Sequence record: OZ035765.1
Source: Veterinaerplatzvirus T145P1
Length of the DNA stretch: 45,062 bases
Strand: one strand, 5' to 3'
Shown here: positions 2,566 to 45,062 of the stretch, piece after piece
Layout: the number at the start of each line of letters is the position of its first letter
Position numbering within the stretch: the stretch's first letter is position 1
Made by a program: the position numbers and the translations under genes
Notes under the pieces: generated by a model
Told to the model about the DNA's origin: nothing
Database searches by the model: none
Seen by the model: only the letters and a program-made list of their open reading frames with translations

Positions 2566-2585
2566 TCAAAAACCGTGTGATAAAC

Positions 2586-2609: not shown

Positions 2610-2623
2610 ATTGGAGAAATGCA

Positions 2624-3874: not shown

Positions 3875-3939
3875 ATTAATTGGTTACGGTGGGGGTTAAT
3901 GAATGATGAATTTGATGGCTTTTAGTGAGGAGAATTGGG

Positions 3940-5028: not shown

Positions 5029-5040
5029 GGAGTTATAAAC

Positions 5041-5562: not shown

Positions 5563-5577
5563 TAATTAAGATATATA

Positions 5578-5602
5578 AAGCCTCCTTCGGGAGGTTTTTT
5601 TA
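5578..5602 (+). terminator. rho-independent terminator
   Basis: GCCTCC-TTCG-GGAGG followed by T7. Confidence 0.7.
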
Positions 5603-5607
5603 TACCA

Positions 5608-5635
5608 TTGCGTGGGCTAAAAACTCGTGTATAAT
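5608..5635 (+). promoter_or_regulatory. sigma70-like promoter for major capsid gene
   Basis: TTGCGT, 16-bp spacer, TATAAT; between terminator and capsid RBS. Confidence 0.55.
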
Positions 5636-5673
5636 GAACCCGTAGACACCTAACTGAAAAGGAACAATAAAGA

Positions 5674-6618
5674 ATGGCCATTAAATTTGATGCAGAACAA
5701 GCAAAAATCACCGCTCACCTCGAGCAAATGGGCGTAGAGAAAGCAGATGCCGCTGGTATCTGGACTGTTAAGCAACTGACCGCCAATCTGGCACGAGCTT
5801 ACGAAAAAGAATATGCAGACAACTCCGTTGTTAATATCTTCCCTGTGACCAATGAAATCCCTGGTCATGCGAAATATTTCGAATATCCAGAATTTGACGG
5901 CGTTGGCATTGCTCAGATTATCGCCGATTACTCTGACGACTTGCCGCTGGTTGATGCGTTTATGACCGAGAAACAGGGTAAAGTGTTCCGCTTTGGTAAC
6001 GCGTTCCTGATCTCCACTGACGAAATCAAAGCAGGTGCGGCAACTGGTCAGCCACTGTCGGCTCGCAAACAGGCTCTGGCATTCGAAGCGCATGATAACC
6101 TGCTGGATAAACTGGTATGGTCAGGCTCTACACCACACGGAATTCCTAGCGTGTTCAATCATCCGAACATCAACAACGTTGTTTCTGGTGGTGCGTGGAG
6201 CTCTGCATCTGCCGCCATGACTGATATTACCGCACTTATTGATGCAATCGAGACTGCGACTAATGGCACTCACACCGCAACTGATATCTTGCTGCCTGCC
6301 TCCGCTCGCCGCCTGATGCAAGAACTGGTGCCGAATACATCTATCAGCTACGCCCAGCTGTTCGCTACCAATAACTCTGGTATCACTCTGCGTTATCTTC
6401 AGTTCCTGGATAACTACGACGGAGCAGGCGGTAAAGCAGCATTGGCGTTTGAAAAGAATCCTCTCAACCTTTCGATTGAGATCCCGGAAGCGACCAATGT
6501 ACTTCCAGGACAGCCTAAGGATTTGCACATCCGCTACCCTGTTACCTCCAAAGCAACAGGATTGATTTTATATCGCCCTCTGACGGTGGCCGTAATGAAA
6601 GGTATCACCTTCGCGTGA
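5674..6618 (+). CDS. major capsid protein
   Basis: 314 aa; own sigma70-like promoter (TTGCGT-16-TATAAT), strong RBS and flanking terminators indicate very high expression. Confidence 0.65.
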   Translation: MAIKFDAEQAKITAHLEQMGVEKADAAGIWTVKQLTANLARAYEKEYADNSVVNIFPVTNEIPGHAKYFEYPEFDGVGIAQIIADYSDDLPLVDAFMTEKQGKVFRFGNAFLISTDEIKAGAATGQPLSARKQALAFEAHDNLLDKLVWSGSTPHGIPSVFNHPNINNVVSGGAWSSASAAMTDITALIDAIETATNGTHTATDILLPASARRLMQELVPNTSISYAQLFATNNSGITLRYLQFLDNYDGAGGKAALAFEKNPLNLSIEIPEATNVLPGQPKDLHIRYPVTSKATGLILYRPLTVAVMKGITFA

Positions 6619-6624
6619 TAAATC

Positions 6625-6647
6625 GCCCTCTTCGGAGGGCTTTTTTT
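6625..6647 (+). terminator. rho-independent terminator (after major capsid gene)
   Basis: GCCCTC-TTCG-GAGGGC followed by T7. Confidence 0.7.
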
Positions 6648-6710
6648 ACGTCTGTACCAAATGGATTTGTTGGGTTATAATCACTCAATCAGATAACAAA
6701 GGAGACAAAA

Positions 6711-6956
6711 ATGATTCGTTTAGAACACACTGGCGCTTGCCTTATCGTTTACAGGGGTGAGAAATATTTGCCTGGTGACACTTTCGAGGTTGATGCAATT
6801 TGCGACGGACTCAAGCGTTTAATCGCAGAGGGTAAACTCACCATTGAGGGTGACGCCAAAGCAACCAAACAAATCGCGCAAGAAGTTGTTAGCAAGAAAA
6901 AGCGCAGAGAACCGAAAACCATCTCCGAGGCTGAGACTGGTAACGAGTACAAATAA
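6711..6956 (+). CDS. hypothetical protein
   Basis: 81 aa, RBS AAAGGAG, terminator downstream. Confidence 0.45.
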   Translation: MIRLEHTGACLIVYRGEKYLPGDTFEVDAICDGLKRLIAEGKLTIEGDAKATKQIAQEVVSKKKRREPKTISEAETGNEYK

Positions 6957-6961
6957 TAAAC

Positions 6962-6984
6962 AGGGCGCTTCGGCGTCCTTTATT
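6962..6984 (+). terminator. terminator-like hairpin
   Basis: GGGCGC-TTCG-GCGTCC followed by TTTATT. Confidence 0.45.
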
Positions 6985-6997
6985 GTATGGAGCTAAT

Positions 6998-7399
6998 ATG
7001 AATGATGCAATTTTGGCGTTTATGCGCTCGCTTGTACCTGCTCTCAAAGCGGCGGATGACGAATCAATTAATGTATGGATTGATTTGGCACGTCTATACG
7101 TATGCGAAAGCAAGTTTGGAGCAGACAAAGACAAGGCTGTCGGCCTTTATGCATTGCACCTGATGCTTGCTGATGGCGCGTTTAAAGGCGAGAACGAAGG
7201 TCTGGAAACATACAGTCGTAGAATGGCAAGTTACGCACTGAGCGGTGAATTCTCTATCACATATGATACCCAATCAGCAGCATCTGGTGATTTATCATCT
7301 TCTCAATTCGGTAGGATGTATAAGGCGCTTCTTCGCAAGAAAGGCGGTGGATTTGGATTAATTACTTCCGCTACTGGCGGTGGGTGCGGTTGCCGATGA
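6998..7399 (+). CDS. head-tail connector/adaptor protein (putative)
   Basis: Start moved to ATG 6998 (GGAG 5 nt upstream); position between capsid and tail genes. Confidence 0.35.
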   Translation: MNDAILAFMRSLVPALKAADDESINVWIDLARLYVCESKFGADKDKAVGLYALHLMLADGAFKGENEGLETYSRRMASYALSGEFSITYDTQSAASGDLSSSQFGRMYKALLRKKGGGFGLITSATGGGCGCR

Positions 7400-7767
7400 A
7401 CTACAGCGAAATAGAATCAATCACTCGCGAAGGAATTAACTTCTTTAGTGATGCCAATGGCGTTTACGAGATGAGTACTGGCGCTGGATATGTTGAAATC
7501 GTTAACGGCGTTGAGGTTGAGTTTCCTTCGCAAACATTCCAGCTAAAGGGTTTGGTTCGAGAAATCAAGACTCGCGATATAGATGGTGAGTTTATCCATT
7601 TTGGCGATAAGCGCGGAATCTTCACAGCTCAGGTGGAAATTAAGCAGGGTTATCAGATTAAAGTTGATGGTGAGACTTTTGTTGTTGTTGATCCGCGACC
7701 AGTTAAACCAACTGGTACAGTGGTTGGTTACAGACCGATTCTTCGTAGGGTGGCTACTTATGGCTAG
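7396..7767 (+). CDS. head closure protein (putative)
   Basis: ATGA overlap with the upstream stop; position-based. Confidence 0.35.
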   Translation: MNYSEIESITREGINFFSDANGVYEMSTGAGYVEIVNGVEVEFPSQTFQLKGLVREIKTRDIDGEFIHFGDKRGIFTAQVEIKQGYQIKVDGETFVVVDPRPVKPTGTVVGYRPILRRVATYG

Positions 7768-8197
7768 AAATATTGGAAGCGTCGCTACGTTTGAGAAATC
7801 TATTACTGACTGGATTGACAGAGCAGATAAGGGATTTGAAATTGTGGTCGCTAATACGGTCACTAAAACAGCCAACGCAATTGTGGACCTTTCCCCTGTC
7901 GACACTGGTAGATTCAAGGCTAACTGGCAAATTACCGCAAACTCACCAGCCCAGCAGTCTCTGAATGAGTACGATCAGACTGGCGGGCAGACAAAAACAT
8001 ATCTCGCCAGACAAGCCAGAGCAGTAGCCAATTCAAAAGCCACTAGTGTTATTTATATTACTAACCGACTTGATTACGCAGCCGACCTTGAGTATGGAGC
8101 TTCAAATCAGGCTCCGTCTGGTGTTTTGGGCGTGGTGCAAGCGAGGCTTGGCAGGTATTTTCAAGAAGCAGTGGAGGAGGCTCGTCGTGCAATATGA
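7760..8197 (+). CDS. neck / tail completion protein (putative)
   Basis: Start moved to ATG 7760 (track ORF has a long in-frame N-terminal extension overlapping the previous gene); DTGRFKANW motif region. Confidence 0.4.
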   Translation: MARNIGSVATFEKSITDWIDRADKGFEIVVANTVTKTANAIVDLSPVDTGRFKANWQITANSPAQQSLNEYDQTGGQTKTYLARQARAVANSKATSVIYITNRLDYAADLEYGASNQAPSGVLGVVQARLGRYFQEAVEEARRAI

Positions 8198-8588
8198 ATT
8201 ATCATTAGCAGCAAGGAAATTCGTCAACGATTTGTTGGTAAATGAATTTCCGGTCAGATATCCAGTTGCGTGGGAGAATGCTGCATTCACCCCTCCTGCG
8301 GATGGATCAATCTGGCTTAAGTACGACTACACGGAAGTTGATACTGTAACCTACGGATTAAGCAGGAAGTGCAAATACTACGTAGGCATGGTGCAGATTT
8401 CTGTTTTCTTCAGCCCTGGCACTGGAATTGATAGACCCAGACAAATCGCTAATCAATTGGCAGAATCTATCGTTGATGGTACAATGCTTGACAGCGGGAC
8501 CATTTATGAGTCTGGAGTTGTTAACCCGGTTATCAAATCCAAATCTGGGTGGTTTATCCCGGTTCGTTTTTATGTTCGTCTAGACTAA
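8187..8588 (+). CDS. tail terminator-like protein (putative)
   Basis: Probable GTG start at 8187 after GGAGGAGG; directly precedes major tail gene. Confidence 0.35.
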   Translation: MQYELSLAARKFVNDLLVNEFPVRYPVAWENAAFTPPADGSIWLKYDYTEVDTVTYGLSRKCKYYVGMVQISVFFSPGTGIDRPRQIANQLAESIVDGTMLDSGTIYESGVVNPVIKSKSGWFIPVRFYVRLD

Positions 8589-8603
8589 CAAAAGGAAAAA
8601 TAA

Positions 8604-9260
8604 ATGGCTCATCTCAGCAATGGCACGCAGGTCTTCGTAGAAGGCTCTCGCGGAGCTGCAATTGACGTAACTGCAATTTCTAACGCAGTTACCCCTGTTT
8701 TAACTGTATCTGACGCCTCTGGCTTGGTCGTTGGTGATTACTTGCTTTTCACCTCTTCTGCCTCAACTCTTCTGGCTGACAAGCAGGTTCGCGTAACTGC
8801 AATCACTGATACGTCAGTAACCGTTGAAGGTATTGATACCTCCAGCACCACTAAGTTCCCTGCTGGTCTAACTGGTGAAGTTGTTAAAATTACTTCATGG
8901 TTCGAGGTTCCTTGTGTTCAGGACGTATCTACTGACGGCGGCGAACAGCAGTTCGTTAACTTCCAGTGCTTGTCAGATGACCGCGAACAGCAGATTCCGA
9001 CTTATAAATCTGCCGTAACAAACACCTTCACCTTTGCTCACGAGTACACTAACCCGGTTTATCCGGTTCTGCGTAACTACGACGAGTCTGGCCAGGTTGT
9101 TGCGATTCGTCTGTTCGTACCTCGCGCTCAGGAAATGCGTTTACAGTCCGGCACTATCGCTTTCAACGACACCCCTACCATTGGTGTTAACGAAATCGAA
9201 ACGGTATCCATCGCAGTATCCATTCGTGGGCGCCTATCCTCTGTGGCAGCAGAAGTTTAA
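8604..9260 (+). CDS. major tail protein
   Basis: 218 aa, Ser/Thr/Val-rich; sits before chaperone pair and tape measure; terminator follows. Confidence 0.6.
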   Translation: MAHLSNGTQVFVEGSRGAAIDVTAISNAVTPVLTVSDASGLVVGDYLLFTSSASTLLADKQVRVTAITDTSVTVEGIDTSSTTKFPAGLTGEVVKITSWFEVPCVQDVSTDGGEQQFVNFQCLSDDREQQIPTYKSAVTNTFTFAHEYTNPVYPVLRNYDESGQVVAIRLFVPRAQEMRLQSGTIAFNDTPTIGVNEIETVSIAVSIRGRLSSVAAEV

Positions 9261-9266
9261 AGCACA

Positions 9267-9289
9267 AACCCTCTTAGGAGGGTTTTTTA
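9267..9289 (+). terminator. rho-independent terminator (after major tail gene)
   Basis: AACCCTC-TTAG-GAGGGTT followed by T5. Confidence 0.65.
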
Positions 9290-9294
9290 TTGCA

Positions 9295-9337
9295 TAGCAC
9301 TTTTTGCTAAAGCGGTTATTCAACTTTGCTGTATAGT
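9295..9337 (+). promoter_or_regulatory. conserved promoter/operator module
   Basis: TAGCACTTTTTGCTA, 22 bp, TATAGT, leader TACCTCATCGAAACGA. Confidence 0.5.
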
Positions 9338-9370
9338 TACCTCATCGAAACGAAATGAGAGATTAAAGAA

Positions 9371-9619
9371 ATGAATAACGTTAAAAACATCATCAAGCTC
9401 GCTGCGGTTCTGTTTGCTTTTTATGCGGTAGTTCAGATTGTAGACCCAACAGGTGAGGCTGATGCCAATATCAAGGCAAACAAATATACTGTTGAATTTG
9501 CTAAGGCTGAGCGAGCATGTCAGGAGCTTGTAGGTGGCAAAGTTGACCAAATCATGAAATACGGCAAAGAGGTTTGTAAGGACTCGGCTGCTAAGATTGC
9601 AAAAGAAAACACTAAGTAA
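9371..9619 (+). CDS. hypothetical small membrane/secreted protein (moron-like)
   Basis: 82 aa with N-terminal hydrophobic segment; own promoter module at 9295-9337. Confidence 0.5.
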   Translation: MNNVKNIIKLAAVLFAFYAVVQIVDPTGEADANIKANKYTVEFAKAERACQELVGGKVDQIMKYGKEVCKDSAAKIAKENTK

Positions 9620-9657
9620 TAGAATACATACTCACAAACAATAAGAGGATTAACAAA

Positions 9658-9972
9658 ATGGCAAAGTTCAAACTTTCACTGGCAGCACTCCCAGACTTTA
9701 AGCTACCAGTAAAATTTAAGCTGGCTAACGACCAGGATGTAGAGGTTATCTTTACAGTCAAGCATAAGAAAACATCTGAGTTGCAGGAGCTGCTTAGCAA
9801 GGAAGACTTGAGCACAAAAGAGCTTATTATGGCAATTGCTTCTGATTGGGATCTGGAAGAAGAATACAACGAAGATAACGTTAATGAGTTCTCAGACCTT
9901 TTCCCGGCCTCAACTGTTGCACTGACAACTGCTTACATGCAAGCGCTTGCTGGTCAGCGAGTAAAAAACTAA
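9658..9972 (+). CDS. tail assembly chaperone (G-like)
   Basis: 104 aa acidic protein directly upstream of tape measure; ends at slippery AAAAAAC. Confidence 0.6.
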   Translation: MAKFKLSLAALPDFKLPVKFKLANDQDVEVIFTVKHKKTSELQELLSKEDLSTKELIMAIASDWDLEEEYNEDNVNEFSDLFPASTVALTTAYMQALAGQRVKN

Positions 9973-10292
9973 AACGAGCGGTGTATCTACAGTACCAGTC
10001 AGAGCCAACTGATGCCGAACTGGAAGCTATTGGGATGCGCCGCTCTGATTACGAAGATGAAGAGCCTGAGGTTTTACACTTCGACGACAACATGATGAAG
10101 GCGTGGGACATTTATTGTTCAATGGCTACGCAGTGGAGAGTAGGAGCCAATGGAGCTACAGGGTTAGATTACAACGTGCTAAATTTCCTCTTTAGAGTGT
10201 ATAATGTTTCTGAAGAAGAATTGGTACTCAGCGATTTACGCATCCTTGAAGCTAAGGCTCTTGAGATGATGGATAACCTGAGAAAAAAATAA
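9658..10292 (+). CDS. tail assembly chaperone frameshift fusion (G-T-like, -1 shift at 9963-9969)
   Basis: Heptamer A_AAA_AAC sits in the 0 frame at the 3' end of the upstream ORF; the -1 frame continues into the 9981-10292 ORF. Confidence 0.55.
9963..9969 (+). other. -1 programmed ribosomal frameshift slippery heptamer (A_AAA_AAC)
   Basis: Heptamer in the 0 frame immediately before the chaperone stop; -1 frame open through 10292. Confidence 0.6.
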
Positions 10293-10314
10293 CCCGCTTC
10301 GGCGGGTTTTCTAT
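10292..10314 (+). terminator. terminator-like hairpin before tape measure gene
   Basis: ACCCGC-TTCG-GCGGGT followed by TTTC. Confidence 0.45.
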
Positions 10315-10327
10315 TATGGAGGCTTAG

Positions 10328-13309
10328 ATGGCAACAAATGAATTAGCCGGAATCACACTAGCCGTAGATGTCTCGCAAGTAGACAGGGGAACGCAATCCC
10401 TGCAAAAGTTCAGACAGGCAAACCAGCAAGCCGCTTCCGGTATTAGTGAATTCGTCAACGCTGAGCAGGTTGCTAAAAAACAGGCGAGAGATACGGCTCG
10501 TGCACTTTCTGAGCAGCAAGCGTCACTAGCTAAATTGCAAACAGCTATCGACCCAACTGCTGCAAAGTTCCGCAAGCTGCAAGAGGCAGCGGTGGGTCTT
10601 GATAAGGCATTCGCTGCTGGCGTAGTTCCTGACGAGGAATTTTTCCGCTTAGGTGAGGCGCTAGAAACTCAAAACGCAAAACTTGCTCGTTCACGTGCGG
10701 CGCTAACTGAAGAGGGTAGGGCGGCAGCGCAGGCTGCAAAGGATAAGGCAAAAGCAAAGGCTGAAGCGGATAGATTCATTGCATCACTTGAGCGTCAGGC
10801 TCAAGCGGCAACATTGACGCGTGAGGAGTACTTAAAGTTACAAGCGGCCCAGCTTGGCGTTAGTTCTCAGGCAGCACCCATCATTGACAGAATCGCCGAC
10901 GCATCACAGAAGGCAAACACCCAGTTAATTGCTCAGAGTAATGCTTTTCAGAAATCAGGATTAAGCGCCGGGCAATACAAGAATGCCATATCTCAACTAC
11001 CAGCGCAGATTACTGATATTGGCACGTCGCTTGCTGGTGGCATTCCGATTTGGCTTATTGCAATTCAGCAAGGTGGGCAGATCAAGGATGCATTTGGCGG
11101 CATTGGTAACACCTTTAGATTCGCACTTGCAGCCTTAAACCCATTCAATGTAGCTGTTGGTGTTTTGGGTGGGGTACTTGTAGCTCTTGGTGTTGGTGCG
11201 GCTCAGGCTGAAAGTGAATTCAGAGCATTAAACTCTGCCATTGCATTTTCCAACAACTCTACAATCGCATCAATCTCGCAGGTTAGAGAGTTGGTTAGCT
11301 CTGTTTCTGATGCAACAGGTGCCACCAGAGGGCTTGTGACTAGCATCGCAACAAGCCTTATTGAGCAAGGGAACCTTACGCTGACGCAGATTGACAAGAT
11401 TACTAAATCGACCGCAAGATGGGCACAGTTGACAGGCAAGGATGCGAAGGAAATTACTGGTTACTATAACCAGATTGCGAGCGACCCAATACAGGGATTG
11501 GTTGATTTGGATAAGCGCTTTAACTTCCTCACTCAGGGGCAGTTGACGACAATCGAAAACCTGAGCAAGACAAAGGGAGAGGTCGAGGCCGTTACCGCCG
11601 CAATTGACATTTTCAGCAAGTCGCAGGAAGCAAACCTTAACGACATAGCAGCGCAGTTAACTCCACTTGAGTTAGCCTGGAATGACTTTAGAAAGTACAT
11701 CTCTGACATTTGGGATGCAATTAGCCGCAGAACGGTTGGGGCGCTAAACCTGTTTGTTGACGTAATTGCCGGAACAATTGAGCAGATCAGGGTCTTCATT
11801 AACCAGGGTGACGTACTGATTGGTGAATTCGTAATTAGCGCAACGCAAGCGCTGCAAAACATTCCTGGTCTTGATGGTGTTGGTGATGATGTCATAAAGA
11901 GCCAGCAGAAGATTATCGATGCAGCCAAGAAGCAAAACCTTGAGCTAGAAAAGTCTATCAAGGAGCGCGATGCCAGAATAAGAGAAGGAGAACTTGGTTA
12001 CGTTACTCGCAGAGAAAATCAGAATACCAATGAGCAGTCAGGCACGGATGAGGAGTTTGCAAAAAGGAAGAAGGCGCTTCAGGATGAACTTGATGCGATC
12101 AAGAAGAACAGGAAAGAAGAAAATGGCAGGGTTAAAGAGCAAAGAGACCTTACAATTGGTTACGAATCTGGCGTACTGGCACTTCAGGCTCAACTCAAGG
12201 TTCTTCAGGAAAATAGGGATATTGGCGCAGTAATAAGTAATGAGCGCAAGCAGTATCTTCAGGATGAAGCCAAATTCAGGATTCTTGAGCAGAGGCAGCT
12301 TGATGGTTCAATCACCAAAGAGCAGTCAAGACTTCTTCTTGAGAAGGATAAAGTCCTCGAATTGGCAAGGCAGAAGGCTGAACTTGGAGATCAGATTGTT
12401 TTGCAGGAGCGAGCCAATAAGTTAGCTGAAGATAACCGCAAGAAGATTCTTCAGATTAACAACGAAGCAAAAAACATTGATTTGGGGGCTGGTCTATCTT
12501 CTCGTGAACAACAGAGAGCCAAAGAGATTCAGGCTCTTCAGTCCAATCAGGTTAATGCTGGTGGCGCAATTGATGACGTGGATTTTCAGCAGCTTCTCGA
12601 GGCAAGACGTAACTTTTATGCTCAGGAAGATGCGCTACGTGAAAACTGGCTTGCTGGTGTGAACCAATCCTTTGCTAATTGGGCTGAGAGCGCGAAGGAT
12701 GCATTCTCAATTGCTGGAAGTTTAACCACCACAGTATTTGAAGGCATTACTGACCAGATTACTGACCTTGTAACAACTGGTGAAACTAACTTCAGAGAGT
12801 TCACTGTTAACATCCTTAAACAGATTGCTAAGATTGCGGCTCAGCTTCTTATTGTTAAGGCTATCGAGTCTAGTTTAAGTAGCTTTGGTGGTACTGGTGG
12901 CGCGATTGGCTCTATCGCATCTGCGATTGGTGGTGGATTCGCTAACGGTGGTTATACTGGTAATGGAGGGAAATACCAACCAGCAGGAACCGTACACCGT
13001 GGTGAGTTTGTATTCACAAAAGAAGCAACTAGTCGAATCGGTGTTAAGAACCTTTACGCTCTAATGAAAGGTTACGCAAACGGTGGTGTCGTTGGTGGTC
13101 CCTCTGGCTATGCAAATGGTGGCTTGGTTTCTGGAGGCACAGATGTTAATGTTAGTGGAATTACGGTTAACGTTAATAGTGGAATTGGAAGTGACCCAGA
13201 GCAGGCCAAGGCGCTGCAAAATGGCGTTAAGGCAATTGTAGCTGAAGAGATTTCTCAGTCTTTCCAGCAGGGTGGCAGAGCTTATCAGTACCTGCGCGGA
13301 TTTAACTAA
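10328..13309 (+). CDS. tail tape measure protein
   Basis: 993 aa, long coiled-coil, Gly-rich C-terminus; canonical position. Confidence 0.9.
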   Translation: MATNELAGITLAVDVSQVDRGTQSLQKFRQANQQAASGISEFVNAEQVAKKQARDTARALSEQQASLAKLQTAIDPTAAKFRKLQEAAVGLDKAFAAGVVPDEEFFRLGEALETQNAKLARSRAALTEEGRAAAQAAKDKAKAKAEADRFIASLERQAQAATLTREEYLKLQAAQLGVSSQAAPIIDRIADASQKANTQLIAQSNAFQKSGLSAGQYKNAISQLPAQITDIGTSLAGGIPIWLIAIQQGGQIKDAFGGIGNTFRFALAALNPFNVAVGVLGGVLVALGVGAAQAESEFRALNSAIAFSNNSTIASISQVRELVSSVSDATGATRGLVTSIATSLIEQGNLTLTQIDKITKSTARWAQLTGKDAKEITGYYNQIASDPIQGLVDLDKRFNFLTQGQLTTIENLSKTKGEVEAVTAAIDIFSKSQEANLNDIAAQLTPLELAWNDFRKYISDIWDAISRRTVGALNLFVDVIAGTIEQIRVFINQGDVLIGEFVISATQALQNIPGLDGVGDDVIKSQQKIIDAAKKQNLELEKSIKERDARIREGELGYVTRRENQNTNEQSGTDEEFAKRKKALQDELDAIKKNRKEENGRVKEQRDLTIGYESGVLALQAQLKVLQENRDIGAVISNERKQYLQDEAKFRILEQRQLDGSITKEQSRLLLEKDKVLELARQKAELGDQIVLQERANKLAEDNRKKILQINNEAKNIDLGAGLSSREQQRAKEIQALQSNQVNAGGAIDDVDFQQLLEARRNFYAQEDALRENWLAGVNQSFANWAESAKDAFSIAGSLTTTVFEGITDQITDLVTTGETNFREFTVNILKQIAKIAAQLLIVKAIESSLSSFGGTGGAIGSIASAIGGGFANGGYTGNGGKYQPAGTVHRGEFVFTKEATSRIGVKNLYALMKGYANGGVVGGPSGYANGGLVSGGTDVNVSGITVNVNSGIGSDPEQAKALQNGVKAIVAEEISQSFQQGGRAYQYLRGFN

Positions 13310-13339
13310 TTAACGGGGCTTCGGCCCCTAAGGATTTTT

Positions 13340-13690
13340 ATGGCAATAGATAATTTTACATGGTGTACACAAATCCAGAATGGTGGAGCTGCATTTTCCA
13401 ATACAAACAATGTTCGTATTGTTAGCTTTGGCAATGGTTTTGAGCAAAGAGGAACAGGGGGCTACCGCAGTAATAAGCGCAGCTACCAGATGACCTATAC
13501 AAACAAGGACTGGCGTGAGGTTATGGATTTCTGCTTCAATCACATCATCACACCATTCTTCTGGAAAACACCGCAAGGTGATACTTCTATGTTTGTTATT
13601 CAGCAGGATAGCATTTCAGTTACACCAATTAGTAGCGAAGTTCAGACTGTAAACATGCAATTCGTAGAAGTTTTTAGCTCAATGCGTTAA
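13340..13690 (+). CDS. minor tail protein (lambda M-like)
   Basis: 116 aa immediately after tape measure; canonical order. Confidence 0.8.
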   Translation: MAIDNFTWCTQIQNGGAAFSNTNNVRIVSFGNGFEQRGTGGYRSNKRSYQMTYTNKDWREVMDFCFNHIITPFFWKTPQGDTSMFVIQQDSISVTPISSEVQTVNMQFVEVFSSMR

Positions 13691-13693
13691 ACT

Positions 13694-13715
13694 AAGCCCC
13701 TATATGGGGCTTTTT
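13694..13715 (+). terminator. terminator-like hairpin
   Basis: AGCCCC-TATAT-GGGGCT followed by TTTTGTT. Confidence 0.5.
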
Positions 13716-13728
13716 GTTGGAGAAATAT

Positions 13729-14484
13729 ATGTTAAGTCCAAAGTTTGAAAATCAGTTGCAAAGCCTTTTCCCTGGTGAGATTGTGACACTAATCCAGGTT
13801 GACGGCACGTCCTTCGGGGGTCTCGTTTATTCGTTCCACAATGAGAACATCTCATACACTCCAGAAGAAATCATGCTGGCTCAAATGAATGGCGAGCCAC
13901 TACCAGAGAAAACCATCACATTTCGTGGTGAAGAGTACGGGCCTAGACCATTTGGAATCTCTGGCATAAATATGACTTCTGACGGAAAGGCCAATAAGGT
14001 TACATTAACGGTATCAAACGTTGACCAGCGTATTAGTGCGTTAATCCGAACATACAACGGACTTGTTAAAGCTAAGGTTACAATCTGGATTACTACGCGC
14101 GATAACATCAATGAGGATGGAAGCATTGCTGACGGGGACTATCGCAGATTCGTTTACTTTATTGAGCGACCGAAGCAGGTTGACTACAAGACCGCATCGT
14201 TTGAGCTAAGCAGCCCGATGGATATGGATGGTATTTATATCCCCGCAAGACTTGTTCAGTCTGTTTGCTATTGGGCTTCTAGGGGTTGGTATCGCAGCGG
14301 TAATGGATGCGACTACGCTGGCAATCGTTATTTTGACAAAGACGACAACCCGGTAAGTGATCCGTCTCTAGATTTCTGCGCCGGAACAGTTAATAGCTGT
14401 AAGATTAGATTTGGAGAGAATAACCAGCTTTCATTTGGTGGATGCGCAGCAGCAAGCCTTCAAGCTAAAGCGAATCAGAGCTAA
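13729..14484 (+). CDS. minor tail protein (lambda L-like)
   Basis: Start moved to ATG 13729 (GGAG upstream); canonical order. Confidence 0.8.
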   Translation: MLSPKFENQLQSLFPGEIVTLIQVDGTSFGGLVYSFHNENISYTPEEIMLAQMNGEPLPEKTITFRGEEYGPRPFGISGINMTSDGKANKVTLTVSNVDQRISALIRTYNGLVKAKVTIWITTRDNINEDGSIADGDYRRFVYFIERPKQVDYKTASFELSSPMDMDGIYIPARLVQSVCYWASRGWYRSGNGCDYAGNRYFDKDDNPVSDPSLDFCAGTVNSCKIRFGENNQLSFGGCAAASLQAKANQS

Positions 14485-14493
14485 GGGGGAACA

Positions 14494-15252
14494 ATGTTAA
14501 CACCAAAAGTTAAACTGGAAATCTTCCAGCACGCAAAGGAAGTTTACCCGCATGAGTGCTGTGGAGTTGTTACGCAGAAGGGTCGCGCTCAGAGGTATCA
14601 CAGAATCACCAATGTCAGCAAGGACCCGGAGAATGAGTTTATCCTTGATTCGAATGAGTATGCAGATGTTCTCTTTGAGTTGGCTCACAATGAATCTATT
14701 GTTTACGTAGTTCACTCTCATACGGGTGATGGCGCAACAACAAGGCCTAGCCCAGCGGATATTTGCAGCTGTAATGAATGCGAGGTTCCTTACGTTATTG
14801 TAAGCATCCCAGAGTTGGACATGAGAATCCTTGAGCCATCAACCATGCCTCTGATTGGTCGACCTTGGGGGCTTGGTAGCTTTGATTGCTGGGAGTTGGT
14901 AATGGCGTTCCACAAGAAATACGGCGTCAAACTGAATGACTACCGAGTTAATTACCCGTGGTGGGAGAAGCGGTACAATGAAAATATCTATGACGACAAC
15001 TGGATTAAGGAAGGATTTGAGTTGGTGAAAACTTCAGATATTACTGTTGGCTCAATGATTATGATGCAGGTCCAGAGTGAAGTAACAAACCACGCCGGAA
15101 TCTACATTGGCAACAACAGATTCATTCACCATCTTTATGGTAAAATGAGTTCCATTGATATCTATTCCGATTACTGGCGAGAGCGCACAGTGAGAATCGT
15201 TCGCCATAAGGATTTACCAGAGGATGTAATCTATGACCCAGAAACTGATTGA
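14494..15252 (+). CDS. tail assembly protein (lambda K-like, MPN/JAMM plus NlpC/P60)
   Basis: JAMM-like HSHTGDG...SPAD motif and C-terminal Cys/His NlpC-like residues. Confidence 0.85.
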   Translation: MLTPKVKLEIFQHAKEVYPHECCGVVTQKGRAQRYHRITNVSKDPENEFILDSNEYADVLFELAHNESIVYVVHSHTGDGATTRPSPADICSCNECEVPYVIVSIPELDMRILEPSTMPLIGRPWGLGSFDCWELVMAFHKKYGVKLNDYRVNYPWWEKRYNENIYDDNWIKEGFELVKTSDITVGSMIMMQVQSEVTNHAGIYIGNNRFIHHLYGKMSSIDIYSDYWRERTVRIVRHKDLPEDVIYDPETD

Positions 15253-15805
15253 TATTAAGTTAGGTCTGTCTCTAGGCCGCAAGTTTGGAAAGATTCACCA
15301 GATGGCAGTGAATAGCGTGCCGGAGGCAATGAGAGCACTTTGCTCACAGATTCCTGCATTCAAGGAGTTCATGAATAGCCACGTTGGTCAAAATACAAGG
15401 TACGCCGTGTTCGTTGATGGTAAAAATGTGAACGAGCATCGAATTTCTGATTTTAGTGCCGTTCAGGAGATACGAATCTTGCCAATTCCGCAGGGTCGCA
15501 AGTCAGGCGGCTTGTTTCAGACAATTTTAGGTGCAGCCCTTATCGTTGTTGGTATCTACACTGGCCAGGCTTATCTTGTTGGTGCAGGTATCTCTCTTGC
15601 TGCTGGCGGTGTTGCTCAGTTGCTTTCACCTCAAGCTACTGGGTTGAAAGACCAAAGTAACCAGACAAGTAACAGGGCATCTTACGCATTCGGCTCGGCT
15701 GTAAACACGGTAGCCGCTGGCTACCCGGTTTGCCTACCGTATGGCTATCGAACGGTTGGAGGTTCGGTGTTTAGCGCCGGCTCGTATAGTGAAGACATTG
15801 CTTAA
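15233..15805 (+). CDS. tail assembly protein (lambda I-like)
   Basis: 190 aa, hydrophobic Gly-rich segment; overlaps K-like gene. Confidence 0.75.
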   Translation: MTQKLIDIKLGLSLGRKFGKIHQMAVNSVPEAMRALCSQIPAFKEFMNSHVGQNTRYAVFVDGKNVNEHRISDFSAVQEIRILPIPQGRKSGGLFQTILGAALIVVGIYTGQAYLVGAGISLAAGGVAQLLSPQATGLKDQSNQTSNRASYAFGSAVNTVAAGYPVCLPYGYRTVGGSVFSAGSYSEDIA

Positions 15806-15812
15806 ATACCAT

Positions 15813-15836
15813 ACCCGCCTAGTGCGGGTTTTTTAT
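15813..15836 (+). terminator. rho-independent terminator between I-like and J-like genes
   Basis: ACCCGC-CTAGT-GCGGGT followed by T6. Confidence 0.6.
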
Positions 15837-15885
15837 TTAGTGTAGAATGGCACAAATGATCAAAACAAACATGAGGCTTTGTGAT

Positions 15886-18800
15886 ATGGCTGAAGATATT
15901 AAGATTTATGGTGCTAAGGGTGGTAGCCAGAAGCAGCACCAACCAGTGGAACAAGAAGACAACCTGATTTCATTAAACAAGGTCAAGGTATTACTTGCGG
16001 TTGCTGACGGCGAGGTTGACCCTAACTTCTCAATGAAAGATTTATACCTTGCTGACGTTCCGGTGCAAAACCAGGATGGTAGCTACAACTATGATGGTGT
16101 TCGCGCTGAGTTCCGTGCTGGCACGCAGTATCAGGACTATATCGCCGGGCTTGACGGTGCTAACTCAGAGATTCAGGCATCCAGAGAAATCAAGAACGAT
16201 ACCCCGTACATCATTGCGGTTAACAATACTCAGCTTTCAGCAATTCGAGTTAAGCTATTTTGGCCTCGACTGGTTAAGCAAGAAAACAACGGAGACCTGA
16301 ACGGAACAACTTGCGAGTACGCAATTGACCTTTCTGTTAATGGTGGTGCTTACCAGGAATACACTCGCGGAGTTGCTAACGGCAAGACAACTACAGGTTA
16401 CGACCGAAGCATTCGCGTAAACCTTCCGGCAGAGTTTGATAGTGCGCTTGTTCGCATCCGTAAGATTACAGCTGACTCAACGAGCAGCACACTGGTTAAC
16501 GGAATGCAGATTACAACCTATCAGGAAGTAATCGACGCCAAATTCCGCTACCCGCTTACGGCTCTGGTCTATGTTGAGTTTGGTTCTGACTTGTTCCCTA
16601 ACGGCATCCCGACAATCTCAATAAAGAAGCGTTGGAAGCTAATTCAGGTACCGACAAACTACGACCCGGAGACAAGGACTTACAGCGGGACATGGAATGG
16701 CTTATTCAAGATGGCATGGTCGAATAACCCGGCATGGGTTCTCTATGACCTGGTGACAAACCGACGCTATGGGCTTGACCAGCGAGAGTTGGGTGTAGAG
16801 ATTGATAAATGGGGCTTGTATGAAGCCGCGCAATTCTGTGACCAGATGGTTCCAGATGGTAAGGGTGGTTTAGAGCCGCGTTACCTTTGCGATATGGTTG
16901 TGCAAAACAAGGTTGAGGCCTACACGCTAATTCGTGATATCTGCTCAATCTTCCGTGGTCTGACTTTCTATGACGGTGAAAAGATTGGTATCGTGGTTGA
17001 TAAGCCTCGCAACCCATCTTACATCTTCACCAATGATAACGTTGTAAACGGATTGTTCAGTCGAACCTTTGCCAGTGATAAAAGCCTTTACACCACGGCA
17101 AACGTCCAGTTTGATGATGTAGAGAACAACTATCAACAGGATGTTGAGCCGGTATTTGAATTAGAGGCAACTCGTCGTTTTGGATTTAACCCTGTAGATT
17201 TAACTGCGATTGGATGCACTCGCAGAAGTGAAGCAAACAGACGTGGCAGATGGCTCCTGAAAACAAACCTGAGAAGCGAAACTATCAGCTTCACTACTGG
17301 GTTGGAAGGTATGATTCCGATGATTGGCGAGGTAATTGCGGTCAATGACGCTGCATGGTCTAGCAACTATCAGTTAAACCTTTCCGGTCGTATTGAGTCA
17401 GTTCAGGGGTTGCAGGTTTTTACCCCTTTTAAAGTTGACGCAGCGCCTGGTGACAGAATTCTTCTGAACAAGCCAGACGGAAGTCCAGAGGCAAGAACTA
17501 TTGCCAGCGTTTCGGAGGATGGAAGAACAATCAACCTTAACACTGCTTTTAGTTTTGTAGCTCAACCTGACACTGTTTTCGCAATCGATAAGGATAATCT
17601 CGCGCTTCAACAGTATGTTGTGACCGGGATTCAAAAAGCAGATTCTGATGGCTCTGATTCATTCCAGTATACGATTACCGCAGTAGAGTATGACCCGAAC
17701 AAGTATGATGAGATTGATTATGGTGTAAACATTGTTGACCGCCCAACATCAATTGTTGAGCCTGATAGATTGTCGCCACCTGAGAACTTAACAGTATCAA
17801 GCTACAGTAAGGTTGTTCAAGGGTTGTCAGTTGAGACGATGGTTATCGGATGGGATAAAGCTCCATACGCTAAAACATACAATGTTCAGTGGAGGAAAGA
17901 AAATGGCAACTGGATTAACGTACCCAGAACGGCAAGTACAGAGGTTGATATCGAAGGTATTTACGCAGGAATCTATGACGTTAGGGTTCGCAGCGTATCA
18001 GATACTGAAAACGTGTCTTCCTGGTCTGGCATTGTAACCGTATCGCTAACTGGCAAGATTGGTCGCCCATCGGCACCTACTGTTATCACGGCATCAACAG
18101 ATGAGGTATTTGGCATCCGTGTTAAGTGGGGTTTCCCTGAGGGTTCTGGTGACACTGCTTACACTGAACTTCAGCAGGTCCCTGATAATGGTGACGGCAC
18201 TTACAATCCTGATAACGCAAGTTTGCTGACGTTACTGCCTTATCCAGCCTATGAATACTGGCACACGCCAATTCAGCCGGGTAAGGTCATCTGGTATCGC
18301 GCAAGATTGATTGACAGAATCGGCAATACCTCTGATTGGTCTTATTTCGCTAGAGGTATGAGTACTGACGACGCCAACATCATCAACGATTATATCAAGG
18401 TTGATATTGAAGGCTCGGAGGGTTTTAAATACCTAGAGCAGAATGCGATTCAAAAGAACCAGGACATTCAGAATCAAGCCGAGGCAATCATCGAGAACGC
18501 GCTGGCTAATGATGGCGATGTTCGTCGCATGACTAAGGAGAACGGCAAGCGTAAGGCTGAATATGTTCAGGCTGTGAATCTCATAGCTGATGAAACTCAG
18601 GCGCGTGTAGAGGCTCTTACGCAGCTTAAAGCGCAGATTGATGATGAGGTTGTTTCATCGATTACAGAAGTTCAGACTGCATTAGCAACAGAGACAGAAG
18701 CAAGAACTACTGCGGATACGGCTCTATCAGCAAGACTTGGTGAAAACGAGGCTGCACTAAACCAGAAGCTGGACGCTTTTTCTAACGCCACATCGACTGG

Positions 18801-19272
18801 TGTACAGTATGGGATTAGTCTTGGCCTGAAATACAACGGACAGACTTATTCATCCGGCATGAGTATGGAGCTTGTTGGCACTGGTGGGAATGTTCGCAGT
18901 CAGTTCATCTTTGACGCAAACAGATTCGCAATCAGTAACGGCATTGGTTCTGGTTCCGGTCAGTGGCAACTCCCATTCGTTGTAGAGAATGGAAACGTAA
19001 TAATCCAAAGCGCAGTAATCGGCGATGGCTCAATTACTAACGCTAAGATTGGTAATATAATTTCATCAAATGATTATGTGGCAGGCTCTCAGGGATGGGC
19101 GATACTGAAAAGTGGTGCGTCAGAGTTCAATAACACAACTGTAAGGGGCAATCTTTACGCTAACAATGGTAACTTTGCTTTTAACGGAACCAATAACACG
19201 GTTCAGATTAACAATAACGGAATCACTGTAAACTTACCGAACGGAGGAAGAGTGGTAGTTGGAGTGTGGTAA
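15886..19272 (+). CDS. tail tip / host specificity protein (lambda J-like)
   Basis: Start moved to ATG 15886 (GAGG RBS; the track extension overlaps the terminator); 1128 aa. Confidence 0.85.
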   Translation: MAEDIKIYGAKGGSQKQHQPVEQEDNLISLNKVKVLLAVADGEVDPNFSMKDLYLADVPVQNQDGSYNYDGVRAEFRAGTQYQDYIAGLDGANSEIQASREIKNDTPYIIAVNNTQLSAIRVKLFWPRLVKQENNGDLNGTTCEYAIDLSVNGGAYQEYTRGVANGKTTTGYDRSIRVNLPAEFDSALVRIRKITADSTSSTLVNGMQITTYQEVIDAKFRYPLTALVYVEFGSDLFPNGIPTISIKKRWKLIQVPTNYDPETRTYSGTWNGLFKMAWSNNPAWVLYDLVTNRRYGLDQRELGVEIDKWGLYEAAQFCDQMVPDGKGGLEPRYLCDMVVQNKVEAYTLIRDICSIFRGLTFYDGEKIGIVVDKPRNPSYIFTNDNVVNGLFSRTFASDKSLYTTANVQFDDVENNYQQDVEPVFELEATRRFGFNPVDLTAIGCTRRSEANRRGRWLLKTNLRSETISFTTGLEGMIPMIGEVIAVNDAAWSSNYQLNLSGRIESVQGLQVFTPFKVDAAPGDRILLNKPDGSPEARTIASVSEDGRTINLNTAFSFVAQPDTVFAIDKDNLALQQYVVTGIQKADSDGSDSFQYTITAVEYDPNKYDEIDYGVNIVDRPTSIVEPDRLSPPENLTVSSYSKVVQGLSVETMVIGWDKAPYAKTYNVQWRKENGNWINVPRTASTEVDIEGIYAGIYDVRVRSVSDTENVSSWSGIVTVSLTGKIGRPSAPTVITASTDEVFGIRVKWGFPEGSGDTAYTELQQVPDNGDGTYNPDNASLLTLLPYPAYEYWHTPIQPGKVIWYRARLIDRIGNTSDWSYFARGMSTDDANIINDYIKVDIEGSEGFKYLEQNAIQKNQDIQNQAEAIIENALANDGDVRRMTKENGKRKAEYVQAVNLIADETQARVEALTQLKAQIDDEVVSSITEVQTALATETEARTTADTALSARLGENEAALNQKLDAFSNATSTGVQYGISLGLKYNGQTYSSGMSMELVGTGGNVRSQFIFDANRFAISNGIGSGSGQWQLPFVVENGNVIIQSAVIGDGSITNAKIGNIISSNDYVAGSQGWAILKSGASEFNNTTVRGNLYANNGNFAFNGTNNTVQINNNGITVNLPNGGRVVVGVW

Positions 19273-19277
19273 TAAAT

Positions 19278-19305
19278 AAAGCCCCTTAATTGGGGCTTTT
19301 CTTTT
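19278..19305. terminator. bidirectional terminator (J gene and convergent minus-strand operon)
   Basis: A-run, AGCCCC-TTAAT-TGGGGCT, T-run. Confidence 0.65.
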
Positions 19306-20275
19306 AGTAGAAGTTTGGGATAAATGGAAGTGCCATTGATATGTTCGTGTCGAAAGGAAACTGAGCGCCTGTCTGAGTTGAGTAGTTACCTATTACAGAT
19401 CCAGGAACAGCCCTAACGGAGCCTCCAGACATGCAAACACCCTTGTATCGTAAGTTGTTATACCCTCCGGTAACTCTAGTTGTAGCGCCGCACCTAAGCA
19501 GCGGGAAGAAACCACCATTTATTGACTGATATCCATTGCTTATTTGTATAAATCCACCAAGAACGAATGGGCGGCGAACACTTGAAAAAACAATCTGACC
19601 AGAACTATTTGACATTGTGAGTCCAGGCCCGGCCGGTGGTGGTTCATTCCTGAATATCACCAGCTGAACATGGGTACTTGCCGCAACATCATCTGTACCT
19701 CCGTAGGTTATATCCCTACACCATATTGTTGATCCATCTGATTCAAGTGATACGTTTGGATTATCCCACTTGCCGAATGGTATTCCGCTAACTGGTAGCG
19801 ATGCTGCACCGTTAACCTGTATGCCCCCAACCCAGGCCGCAGACATTAGCCGCGAGTTGCTTGATATAGCAAGGAAATCAGTTGAGTTCTCAACAAGTAT
19901 TCCAGGACTTGATGAGGATGAAGCCGGTAGTATCTCAAAGCAATTACCAGCAAAGTCAATTATTCGACCATTAGCACCATTGAAGTTGCTGATAGTTATC
20001 CTGCCAGTTCCGTCATTTACCTTTTGAAACCCGTTCATGTAATAAACTTCGGGTATAACATCGTAAGCGTCAACGTGGACTGCCTTCGTTGGTAGGCAGA
20101 AAGCCGTAGAGCCAGGAAACATTGTCAATCCAAAATCCCACGAGATTGCCGGGGTTGAAAGTCCATTGGTATTTATTGATCCAGTCACAGCAGGTGCCCT
20201 TAATCCTGCCGTGATTTCCATCGCTGGTCTTCCGTCATTGAGGTCAATCAATATACCCTGCGGCATTATTTCCAC
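19304..20275 (-). CDS. hypothetical beta-rich protein coupled to cor-like gene
   Basis: 323 aa, Gly/Asn/Ser-rich; start overlaps the stop of the upstream lipoprotein gene. Confidence 0.5.
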
Positions 20276-44270: not shown

Positions 44271-44495
44271 ATGAGAACATTGAGGCAGATTTTATTCGGT
44301 TGCAAGAAGCATCACTACGTTTACTATCGTGATATTAAATGGTTCGAGGAGGCTCATTGCAAGGGTGGTTACAAGACGAAGTTGATATGTAAGAAATGCA
44401 GGCACGTGACCAACAGCAAGGTTGATATGATGATTTGCCGTAGCACTCTTGATTATATGCGTTACGGGCTCATAAAACCGCCAGTTAAGCCTTAA
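44271..44495 (+). CDS. hypothetical Cys/His-rich protein
   Basis: CKKHH...CKKCRH suggests a small zinc-binding protein; start uncertain (44247 or 44271). Confidence 0.35.
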   Translation: MRTLRQILFGCKKHHYVYYRDIKWFEEAHCKGGYKTKLICKKCRHVTNSKVDMMICRSTLDYMRYGLIKPPVKP

Positions 44496-44509
44496 TTGTT
44501 AAAAATAGC

Positions 44510-44538
44510 TTGCATCACTGACCGGAATTATCTAATAT
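44510..44538 (+). promoter_or_regulatory. sigma70-like promoter upstream of tRNA-Arg
   Basis: TTGCAT, 17-bp spacer, TAATAT. Confidence 0.5.
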
Positions 44539-44704
44539 TAACCACGTAGACAAACGAGCCATCCAAGATGGAACGGCGCACGGAGCGCAACTACTAAGTC
44601 CGTTGCTCATTAAGTAGCGTATGCGGCATTAAGACCTAGCGCAAATAGGCAGATTAATCGGCTGTATCAGGCAGCCCCGGAGCCGTAACCGTGACTAATT
44701 CAAG

Positions 44705-44781
44705 GCTCGAGTGGCGAAAGTGGATATCGCAAGAGACTTCTAATCTCTAGATTGCTGGTTCGAATCCAGCCTCGAGCGCCA
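44705..44781 (+). tRNA. tRNA-Arg (anticodon UCU)
   Basis: Hand-folded cloverleaf: 7-bp acceptor GCTCGAG/CTCGAGC, D-arm GCGA/TCGC with GG loop, anticodon stem AGAGA/TCTCT with loop CTTCTAA, T-arm GCTGG-TTCGAAT-CCAGC, discriminator G, encoded CCA. Confidence 0.85.
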
Positions 44782-44796
44782 ATCAAGGAGTTCATT

Positions 44797-44979
44797 ATGT
44801 GGGATGTGAAGTTGTCCATTCGCTTAATGGGCCGCTCGTGCAATAGCTGCACCCAAGATTATGTCGCGTCAGTTGCCGCAATCAGCGCTGAGGATGCGGT
44901 AGCGAAAGTAAAGGAGATGTCAGGCGCTGACCCTGACACTCACAAATTCCTGGTAGCTTACGTTCGTGAGCGAAAGTAA
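44797..44979 (+). CDS. hypothetical protein (60 aa)
   Basis: Start moved to ATG 44797 (AAGGAG RBS) because the track ORF's 5' part is the tRNA. Confidence 0.4.
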   Translation: MWDVKLSIRLMGRSCNSCTQDYVASVAAISAEDAVAKVKEMSGADPDTHKFLVAYVRERK

Positions 44980-45023: not shown

Positions 45024-45047
45024 AGCCCTCTCTTGAGGGCTTTTTTT
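45024..45047 (+). terminator. rho-independent terminator
   Basis: AGCCCTC-TCTT-GAGGGCT followed by T7. Confidence 0.65.
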
Positions 45048-45062
45048 CGTCTGCAATATGGT

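Follow-up and report, generated by a model that had tools for sequence, protein, structure and literature searches.

A tRNA-Arg cassette upstream of the terminase genes

The DNA of Veterinaerplatzvirus T145P1 analyzed here (sequence record OZ035765.1, in the following called the window) comprises 45,062 nucleotides (nt) and represents an entire permuted phage genome. Close to its end lies a compact unit that consists, in this order, of a promoter, a leader RNA, a tRNA-Arg gene with the anticodon UCU, an open reading frame (ORF) of 60 amino acids (phrog_2919) and a terminator, and that is followed by terS. The same order, from the promoter to terS, is conserved among relatives within the Braunvirinae. 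This report is concerned above all with the leader, a structured RNA of about 159 nt, which we propose as a non-coding RNA family confined to the Braunvirinae. The phage origin of the DNA was confirmed by sequence matches to relatives, which place it within the Drexlerviridae, Braunvirinae: the last 763 nt of the window share 99.6% identity with Veterinaerplatzvirus T145P1 and 85-96% identity with many Rtp-like coliphages of this subfamily. Similarity to most relatives starts abruptly at 44474-44496, just 5' of the promoter, and the cassette is thus a conserved module behind mosaic early genes. Most likely, it forms a self-contained transcription unit of a virulent Rtp-like coliphage, with small early genes clustered on one side and the terminase/structural operon on the other.

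The preliminary description of this DNA had proposed a 77-nt tRNA-Arg(UCU) with an encoded CCA end, and both predictors that we employed call it at 44705-44781 on the + strand. ARAGORN reports a single gene in the whole window, tRNA-Arg (tct), with the anticodon at 44739-44741 and the CCA end at 44779-44781, while the Rfam model RF00005 matches 44705-44778 with 66.1 bits (gathering score 29; E 2.6e-12). The minimum-free-energy fold is a clean cloverleaf, both alone and within the 255-nt precursor, in which leader and tRNA fold independently of each other. The anticodon loop CUUCUAA (44737-44743) has the expected 7 nt with U33 and A37, the D-loop AAGUGGAUA contains an A following GG, and the discriminator at 44778 is a G. 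The E. coli arginyl-tRNA synthetase (ArgRS) identifies its substrates by A20, C35, U36 and G/A73. On a check of presence alone, all four elements (A20, C35, U36, G73) occur in the window tRNA, which fits its predicted charging by the host ArgRS. The tRNA-Arg is routinely annotated in Braunvirinae relatives and is mentioned in genome papers on Rtp-like phages (PMC8421802). Thus the tRNA as such is already known in this phage group, and the leader RNA is the new item.

About 195 nt upstream of the tRNA, at a conserved position, a putative sigma70-type promoter (44510-44538, + strand) comprises the -35 element TTGCAT (44510-44515), a spacer of 17 nt and the -10 element TAATAT (44533-44538), exactly the elements named in the preliminary description. 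An A-rich stretch, TTAAAAATAG, precedes it immediately (44499-44508), and TTGCAT as well as TAnnAT are invariant in eight relatives. At the same position, phage ES carries a different and better promoter, TTGACA-17-TACATT. Since homology nevertheless resumes exactly at GTAGAC, transcription is predicted to start at about 44545-44546.

Downstream of the tRNA, a ribosome-binding site (AAGGAG, 44785-44790) and an ORF of 60 amino acids, with an ATG at 44797 and a stop codon at 44977-44979, occupy 44785-44979 (+ strand). The ribosome-binding site had been placed 16 nt after the tRNA. In fact it starts 3 nt past the CCA end, and the distance of 16 nt applies to the ATG. The assertion that the longer ORF 44752-44979 (75 amino acids, TTG start) begins as an artifact inside the tRNA holds, as its start falls into the T arm and the real start is the ATG at 44797. 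From this residue on, the protein matches phrog_2919 (PHROGs, E 6.7e-29) and coding sequences of 60 amino acids annotated in relatives. The unit ends with an intrinsic terminator (AGCCCTC-TCTT-GAGGGCT followed by T7; 45024-45048, + strand), which was recognized by terminator scan and fold. Its stem has 7 bp including 5 G-C pairs, the z-score of the fold is -4.9, and EC3a and MM01 have an annotated terminator at the corresponding position. The terminator scan found none between the tRNA and 45024, and the gap of 3 nt between CCA and Shine-Dalgarno sequence leaves no room for a promoter between tRNA and ORF. From this anatomy we infer that leader, tRNA and ORF form one transcript, which agrees with the earlier proposal of a tRNA embedded in a messenger RNA.

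Hairpins and covariation in the leader RNA

The leader (44546-44704, + strand) is supported by covariation and by the covariance model R1 described below. It had been described as free of ORFs, and indeed no + strand ORF of at least 30 amino acids occurs in 44496-44752. Its predicted structure is a series of five or six local hairpins, all on the + strand. H1 (CCATC-CAA-GATGG, 44559-44571) shows changes on both sides in four of five pairs, with the variants GCCAC/GTGGC, CTAGC/GCTAG and ACCAC/GTGGT among relatives. H2 (GCGC-ACGGA-GCGC, 44576-44588) is nearly invariant including its loop and the preceding AAC spacer, and such strict sequence conservation suggests a recognition site. The two-tier hairpin H3 (44598-44627) consists of an outer stem GTCCGT/GCGGC, an inner stem GCT/AGC and the loop CATTAAGT. 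Its outer stem covaries from G-C to A-U, while the adjacent pair occurs as U-G, C-G or U-A. A further hairpin, Hv (CCTA-GCGCAAA-TAGG, 44635-44649), belongs to a variable region and was derived from alignments and pair counts. Finally, H4 (GCTGT-ATCAG-GCAGC, 44661-44675; both-side changes in three of five pairs) directly abuts H5 (CCCGG-AGCCGTAA-CCGTG, 44676-44693; both-side changes in two of five pairs). In H5, CCGG/CCGG is replaced by CTGG/CCAG and a C-G pair by G-C among relatives, the loop end CGUAA is invariant, and the window stem contains one C-U mismatch.

Already an alignment of eight relatives revealed that the hairpins are kept through double substitutions. In total, 16 distinct leaders were collected, of which 15 entered the RNAalifold/MAFFT alignment, and metagenomic homologues raised the set to 26 distinct sequences. 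For the 15 leaders RNAalifold predicted local hairpins, with compensatory changes in 10 of 34 pairs. Pairs were then counted on the MAFFT alignment, which had been built without fitting to a structure. One predicted long-range stem that reached into the tRNA was spurious and was discarded, leaving 31 pairs. Standard pairing was found in 99.3% of 457 cells, and 10 pairs were changed on both sides (44 cells), values that none of 500 column shuffles reached. If the 3' partners were slid by 1-3 columns, pairing fell to 23-42% with 0-1 double changes. With all 26 distinct sequences, 99.6% of cells were paired and 11 pairs carried double changes, again with 0 of 500 shuffles reaching these values and 0-1 double changes in the slid controls. 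The covariation is carried by H1, the outer stem of H3, H4 and H5. Thus the GC-rich inverted repeats noted in the preliminary description are real and far beyond chance, and its suggestion of a second structured RNA is backed by compensatory changes in four hairpins across 26 distinct homologues. Furthermore, 24 cells are G:U and none is A:C. Because of this asymmetry, the folded molecule is the + strand RNA, in keeping with rightward transcription, and a signal in double-stranded DNA is disfavored.

Several single-stranded features are invariant as well, namely the 5' GUAG, the AAC spacer, the H2 loop ACGGA, the AAG before H3 and the CGUAA at the end of the H5 loop. Hv and one of the inserted hairpins have similar loop endings (CGUAA, CGCAA), no more than a hint that recognition sites may be repeated. 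In its minimum-free-energy fold, the window sequence additionally pairs GUAG (44546-44549) with CUAC (44590-44593) around H1 and H2, a helix that is absent in TR2 and ES. Across the 26 sequences, position 44550, unpaired near the 5' end, co-varies with 44599 in a bulge of H3 (A-U in 13, G-U in 6, G-C in 6). The co-variation may stem from a pairing of GAC with GUC, tertiary or alternative, or from common descent alone. A pairing like that of P4 in RNase P (AGUCCG with CGGCU) was considered and rejected, as the partner with which CCGU covaries is the nearby GCGG strand of H3. Likewise T-box, guanidine-II (ACGR loops), CsrA-sponge (GGA) and anticodon-mimic loops, all judged by eye, found no support in conservation or enrichment.

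The leader varies in a modular fashion. Its minimal form, found in phage ES, joins H1-H2-H3 straight to H4-H5. Hv is absent from ES and TR2, and the form in the window corresponds to the minimal one plus Hv. In Rtp, OzMSK, FP, IME253, IME542, MM01 and AugustePiccard, H3 and H4 are separated by one to four additional hairpins, which extend the leader to as much as about 300 nt. TR2, ES, IME542 and MM01 carry an extra long hairpin between H5 and the tRNA. Leader length ranges from 140 to 330 nt across phages. In the leader of 'Campylobacter phage A110b' (about 740-1031 of its locus) the H4-H5 module is tandem-duplicated, and the loop of the second copy reads AAUCAUAA versus AGCCGUAA. Modular inserts and a duplication of this kind are typical of functional structured RNAs.

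To what extent the leader occurs elsewhere was addressed at several levels. The preliminary description had recommended an Rfam search and folding of the leader, and both were performed, with local hairpins supported comparatively and no known family recovered: against Rfam 15 (4,227 models) the leader in the window gave no match at E<=10. For the leaders of seven relatives including long forms (E<=5), the single overlap was a sub-threshold YrlA match in Rtp, which is unconvincing, as it reaches 21.3 bits versus a gathering score of 69 (E 1.3) and runs into the tRNA. R1, which was built from the leader alignment, finds one copy in the window and one per Braunvirinae locus found. Pattern scans of IMG/VR, JGI metagenomes and 185,579 species genomes, filtered with R1, returned close Braunvirinae relatives as the only true hits, among them a 46.7-kb phage-like contig from a Nitratidesulfovibrio assembly. 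In two distant relatives (TerS 48% identical) R1 found no match, and the tRNA is lacking too. No BLAST match to the leader was found in 5,426 E. coli genomes, which argues against mimicry of a host RNA at the sequence level. Literature searches retrieved papers that annotate the tRNA, none of them mentioning the leader RNA. Since all these searches yield only close relatives, we regard the leader as a candidate for a new RNA family of narrow host range.

tRNA alleles, codon usage and genome surroundings

Behind the leader the tRNA itself has changed repeatedly. At least four tRNA-Arg alleles, pairwise 61-78% identical, occupy the same slot within the subfamily, and the tRNA body has undergone four or more swaps. 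One, the common allele, is carried by SU57, Rtp and others and shares about 80% identity with a tRNA-Arg gene that 5,425 of 5,426 E. coli genomes contain. A second, with the anticodon CCU, occurs in TR2, ES and Rao1, and a third, 75 nt long with the anticodon UCU, in IME542 and MM01. The allele of the window is common only to T145P1 isolates and phage BEK2, and BLAST found no match to it among the 5,426 E. coli genomes. The leader remains 73-95% identical across the loci that carry the different alleles. In comparison with SU57, the window leader is 95% identical, whereas the tRNA shares just 68% identity with this common Braunvirinae allele. Consequently, the leader is under purifying selection of its own. 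The pattern of tRNA alleles points to an exchange of cassettes or to diversifying selection acting on the tRNA.

The tRNA-Arg(UCU) of Rtp-like phages, of T4, of lambdoid phages (argN/argO) and of the host (argU) share the same anticodon and read the same rare codons, AGA and AGG. In 39 phage ORFs of at least 100 amino acids, AGA amounts to 10.9 and AGG to 7.2 per 1000 codons, and together they make up 37% of all Arg codons. Textbook usage of E. coli K-12 is about 2 (AGA) and about 1 (AGG) per 1000 codons. Thus the two codons, which the preliminary description had pointed out as rare in the host, are about five-fold enriched in the phage compared to such textbook values, and this codon usage is consistent with codon supplementation by the phage tRNA. 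The codons are unevenly distributed over the genome. Both are absent from the ORFs 5041-5562, 5674-6618 and 8604-9260 of the structural region, presumably capsid or tail proteins as judged from position alone, whereas the very long ORFs 10328-13309 and 15847-19272, presumably tape measure and tail fiber, contain 30 and 22 of them, respectively. The need for the phage tRNA would therefore differ sharply among late proteins.

Other elements enter the locus as well. In PCEc3 (2074-2172 of its locus) and EC3a a second tRNA lies between the tRNA-Arg and the small ORF. The copy in PCEc3 matches the Rfam tRNA model with 39.4 bits, while ARAGORN does not call it. Its anticodon loop CUUAUAC (UAU) would read the rare Ile codon AUA, its variable arm is unusually long (about 25 nt), and one record labels it as a 102-nt tRNA-Ile. 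In Rtp, OzMSK, AugustePiccard, FP and ES an extra ORF of about 60-70 amino acids (MK[IT]VTFIVKD...) is inserted between the tRNA and the conserved ORF starting with MWDVKLSIRLMGRSC. The slot after the tRNA is thus a hot spot of insertion. The tRNA-Arg of Klebsiella phage KlebP_265 was set aside because of its unrelated context.

The conserved protein of 60 amino acids is itself restricted to this phage group, where it forms 21 clusters of 71-95% identity among 5.8 billion proteins. AlphaFold2 (AF2) predicts a beta-beta-alpha-beta fold, with a predicted local distance difference test (pLDDT) value of 87.5 for the best model and 44-67 for the other four. A search of the protein against Pfam gave no match, and a Foldseek search of its model against the PDB returned nothing below E 0.3. 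A link to RNA binding was examined by means of Pfam, protein family and fold, and none of them gave a clue to a role in connection with the leader.

With regard to the wider genome, small + strand ORFs fill the region from 38 to 45 kb upstream of the unit. Across the window ends, terS (30-536, + strand, with an ATG at 30) is followed by terL (554-2119), and the structural genes thereafter reach to 19.3 kb. Between the terminator of the unit and terS, a perfect extended -10 sequence, TGGTATAAT, spans the permuted ends (45059-45062 plus 1-5) and is missed by scans that are bounded by the window ends. It is likely a promoter of the terminase/structural operon, as predicted from this motif. Strong terminator-like hairpins on the + strand occur in intergenic gaps of the co-directional structural operon (2587-19299), at 2587, 6625, 6962, 9266, 10291, 13694, 15813 and 19278. 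In total, 29 terminator-like hairpins were counted on both strands of 1-20000, compared to 17.4 expected.

A few records suggest other hosts. NZ_VSMK01000220.1 (46,669 bp) is a complete Rtp-like phage contig within a Nitratidesulfovibrio liaohensis assembly, and PP134917 and MG065688 ('Pseudomonas phage PsgS01F' and 'Campylobacter phage A110b') hardly differ from Braunvirinae of E. coli. All three are probably contaminants or carry a mis-assigned host.

Possible roles of the leader RNA

Judged by comparison of its homologues, the leader is very probably a functional non-coding RNA. As to its role, we lean, if only by a modest degree, toward an RNA that accumulates and acts in its own right, likely by binding protein, in analogy to species 1 and 2 of phage T4. 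The host sigma70 polymerase would start at about 44546, read through leader, tRNA-Arg(UCU) and the 60-amino-acid ORF, and stop at 45024-45048. RNase P cleaves at the 5' end of tRNAs, and therefore the leader would necessarily be released as a separate RNA of about 159 nt. Such a cut by the host enzyme at 44704/44705 would mature the 5' end of the tRNA and at the same time free a leader that bears a 5' triphosphate, while 3' processing past the encoded CCA would separate the tRNA from the ORF message. The tRNA would then supplement the decoding of AGA and, by wobble, of AGG, and the leader would persist as a stable protein-binding RNA, produced stoichiometrically with the tRNA.

Several observations weigh against this view. 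To call the promoter near-consensus, as in the preliminary description, was an overstatement, since it matches the consensus at 7 of 12 positions and was missed by a promoter consensus scan. For H2, Hv and the inner stem of H3 the support comes from conservation without covariation, and invariance is neutral with respect to pairing. Folding energies of single sequences are unremarkable (z -1.25; -0.27), and the structural case thus rests on comparison. However, the homologues compared are closely related (73-99% identity), with few independent substitution events. Long-range or pseudoknot pairing was sought by a search for covarying columns among the 26 sequences, which established none and delivered phylogenetically confounded candidates only. 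Promoter use and start site, release by RNase P, stability of the leader and its action in trans are steps that we infer. Finally, the leader is always found beside tRNA-Arg, in 26 of 26 distinct sequences, which suits a role in cis equally well.

Such a role, with the leader working in cis as the 5' part of the tRNA-ORF transcript instead of as an RNA of its own, is a genuine but tentative possibility. The 5' hairpins together with the triphosphate would then shield the precursor from RNase E or 5'-end-dependent decay. Alternatively, the leader could guide ordered processing, or could be an operator for a regulatory protein, such as the 60-amino-acid product, that sets the output of tRNA and ORF. 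It would explain why the leader stays directly 5' of tRNA-Arg despite at least four replacing alleles, and why the small ORF is conserved along with it and occurs in these phages only. The long hairpin between leader and tRNA in TR2, ES, IME542 and MM01 moreover resembles a processing site. However, ordinary tRNA leaders need no such structure, since the RNase P of E. coli removes any 5' leader, and the RNase P site separates the leader from both tRNA and ORF, hence the leader cannot shield them once cleavage has taken place. Neither an anti-Shine-Dalgarno sequence nor a terminator/antiterminator alternative was visible in sequence, scan or fold. In addition, the invariant loops and modular insertions exceed what stabilizing hairpins would need.

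It is quite improbable that the leader is a promoter-proximal antitermination RNA, either similar to put of phage HK022 or of the boxB-boxA type known from rrn and nut. Such an element would allow read-through of the terminator at 45024 and of the hairpins within the 19-kb operon, or confer resistance to Rho over about 240 nt of untranslated RNA. The location suits this idea, with the unit being the last before terS, a strong terminator between both, and at least eight strong + strand terminator-like hairpins within the late operon. However, the extended -10 sequence TGGTATAAT upstream of terS means that the late operon can have a promoter of its own. At the level of structure, H4 and H5 abut without a linker, and the two stems of put nearly do so as well. 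Yet R1 found no match in the immunity region of HK022 (24-36 kb; put sites are unannotated in that record), and no antitermination family of Rfam matches the leader of the window or of seven relatives. H2 resembles boxB as a GC stem with a pentaloop and is followed by TGCTCATTAAG, which resembles the boxA of rrn. However, the best match to boxA (UGCUCUUUAACAA or CGCUCUUA) is TGCTCATTAAGTA with 3 mismatches, of which the window contains 23 versus 20 expected, and thus chance level, and core positions of the boxA-like sequence vary in OzMSK, TR2 and ES.

Last, a signal at the DNA level (pac, origin or protein-binding repeats) or a decayed tRNA relic could be considered, since phages of this group package by headful, the distance from the element to the downstream terS is about 400-550 bp, and other tRNA genes come and go in the slot (for example the tRNA-Ile(UAU)-like gene of PCEc3 and EC3a). 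This reading is highly improbable, because 24 G:U versus 0 A:C is a strand asymmetry unexpected for double-stranded DNA or cruciforms, the conserved leader start coincides with the promoter, compensatory changes keep the hairpins intact and thus contradict decay, and neither ARAGORN nor the tRNA model recognizes a tRNA in the leader, whatever the threshold.

The favored reading, a leader that acts in its own right, takes its model from T4. Species 1 (rnaC, 139 nt) and species 2 (rnaD, 119 nt) are structured phage RNAs of similar size, likewise without an assigned function. Their transcripts also contain tRNAs, and the enzymes that process tRNAs set them free. Both directly adjoin a tRNA-Arg, 1 nt away, and it is this gene arrangement alone that was compared with the leader. 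In contrast to the leader, which lies upstream of its tRNA and has no tRNA-like part, rnaC and rnaD are located downstream of the tRNA-Arg and end in a tRNA-like T-arm/acceptor. With its filters switched off, R1 found nothing over rnaC/rnaD in the T4 tRNA region, where its best match elsewhere reached 7 bits.

ROOL and GOLLD, phage RNAs that are supported by covariation, are often found near tRNA genes or islands and contain variable inserted domains (PMC12286853). However, with 500-800 nt, many pseudoknots and an assembly into multimeric cages, they differ from the leader with its 140-330 nt, in which local hairpins only were detected, and their Rfam models did not match the leader of the window or of seven relatives. 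With HK022 put the leader shares the character of a promoter-proximal phage RNA made of adjacent hairpins upstream of terminators, while both lack similarity in sequence or model and the downstream operon is here predicted to have a separate promoter. The mixed operons of E. coli (thrU-tyrU-glyT-thrT-tufB; tyrT-tpr) resemble the unit in that tRNA and message share promoter and terminator. In these operons RNase P and RNase E separate the tRNA from the message. The phage unit differs from them by the 3 nt between CCA and Shine-Dalgarno sequence and by the long structured RNA before the tRNA. Taken together, the leader belongs with the structured RNAs that are linked to phage tRNA genes, a poorly understood kind.

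One might speculate further that the leader is the founder of a class of small phage RNAs coupled to tRNAs, for example as a decoy or sponge for a host protein, a proposal that we regard as doubtful. Each copy could be made together with one copy of a tRNA-Arg, the body of which is repeatedly exchanged in the course of an arms race against host defenses, and the sponged protein could be ArgRS, an enzyme that modifies or processes tRNA, or a nuclease that targets it. If true, the leader would be a compact and tractable E. coli counterpart of the tRNA-linked ROOL, GOLLD and T4 species 1 and 2.

The tRNA itself adds little to this picture, as it is a textbook rare-codon phage tRNA. The leader is of moderate interest and will cause little surprise to specialists, yet it is a well-supported new RNA in model coliphages. 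Structured RNAs beside phage tRNA genes, such as T4 species 1 and 2, ROOL and GOLLD, have posed a problem for decades, and a case of 160 nt in a 45-kb coliphage could make it directly testable. Phages that bear the leader, namely Rtp and the BASEL phages AugustePiccard and JulesPiccard, grow on E. coli K-12 and are thus readily accessible to knock-outs, pull-downs and structure probing. With regard to phage tRNAs in general, it is debated whether they serve codon supply or the escape from tRNA-cleaving defenses (PMC10264068, PMC11555353), and a locus in which the tRNA body is replaced again and again while the leader before it stays unchanged bears on this debate.

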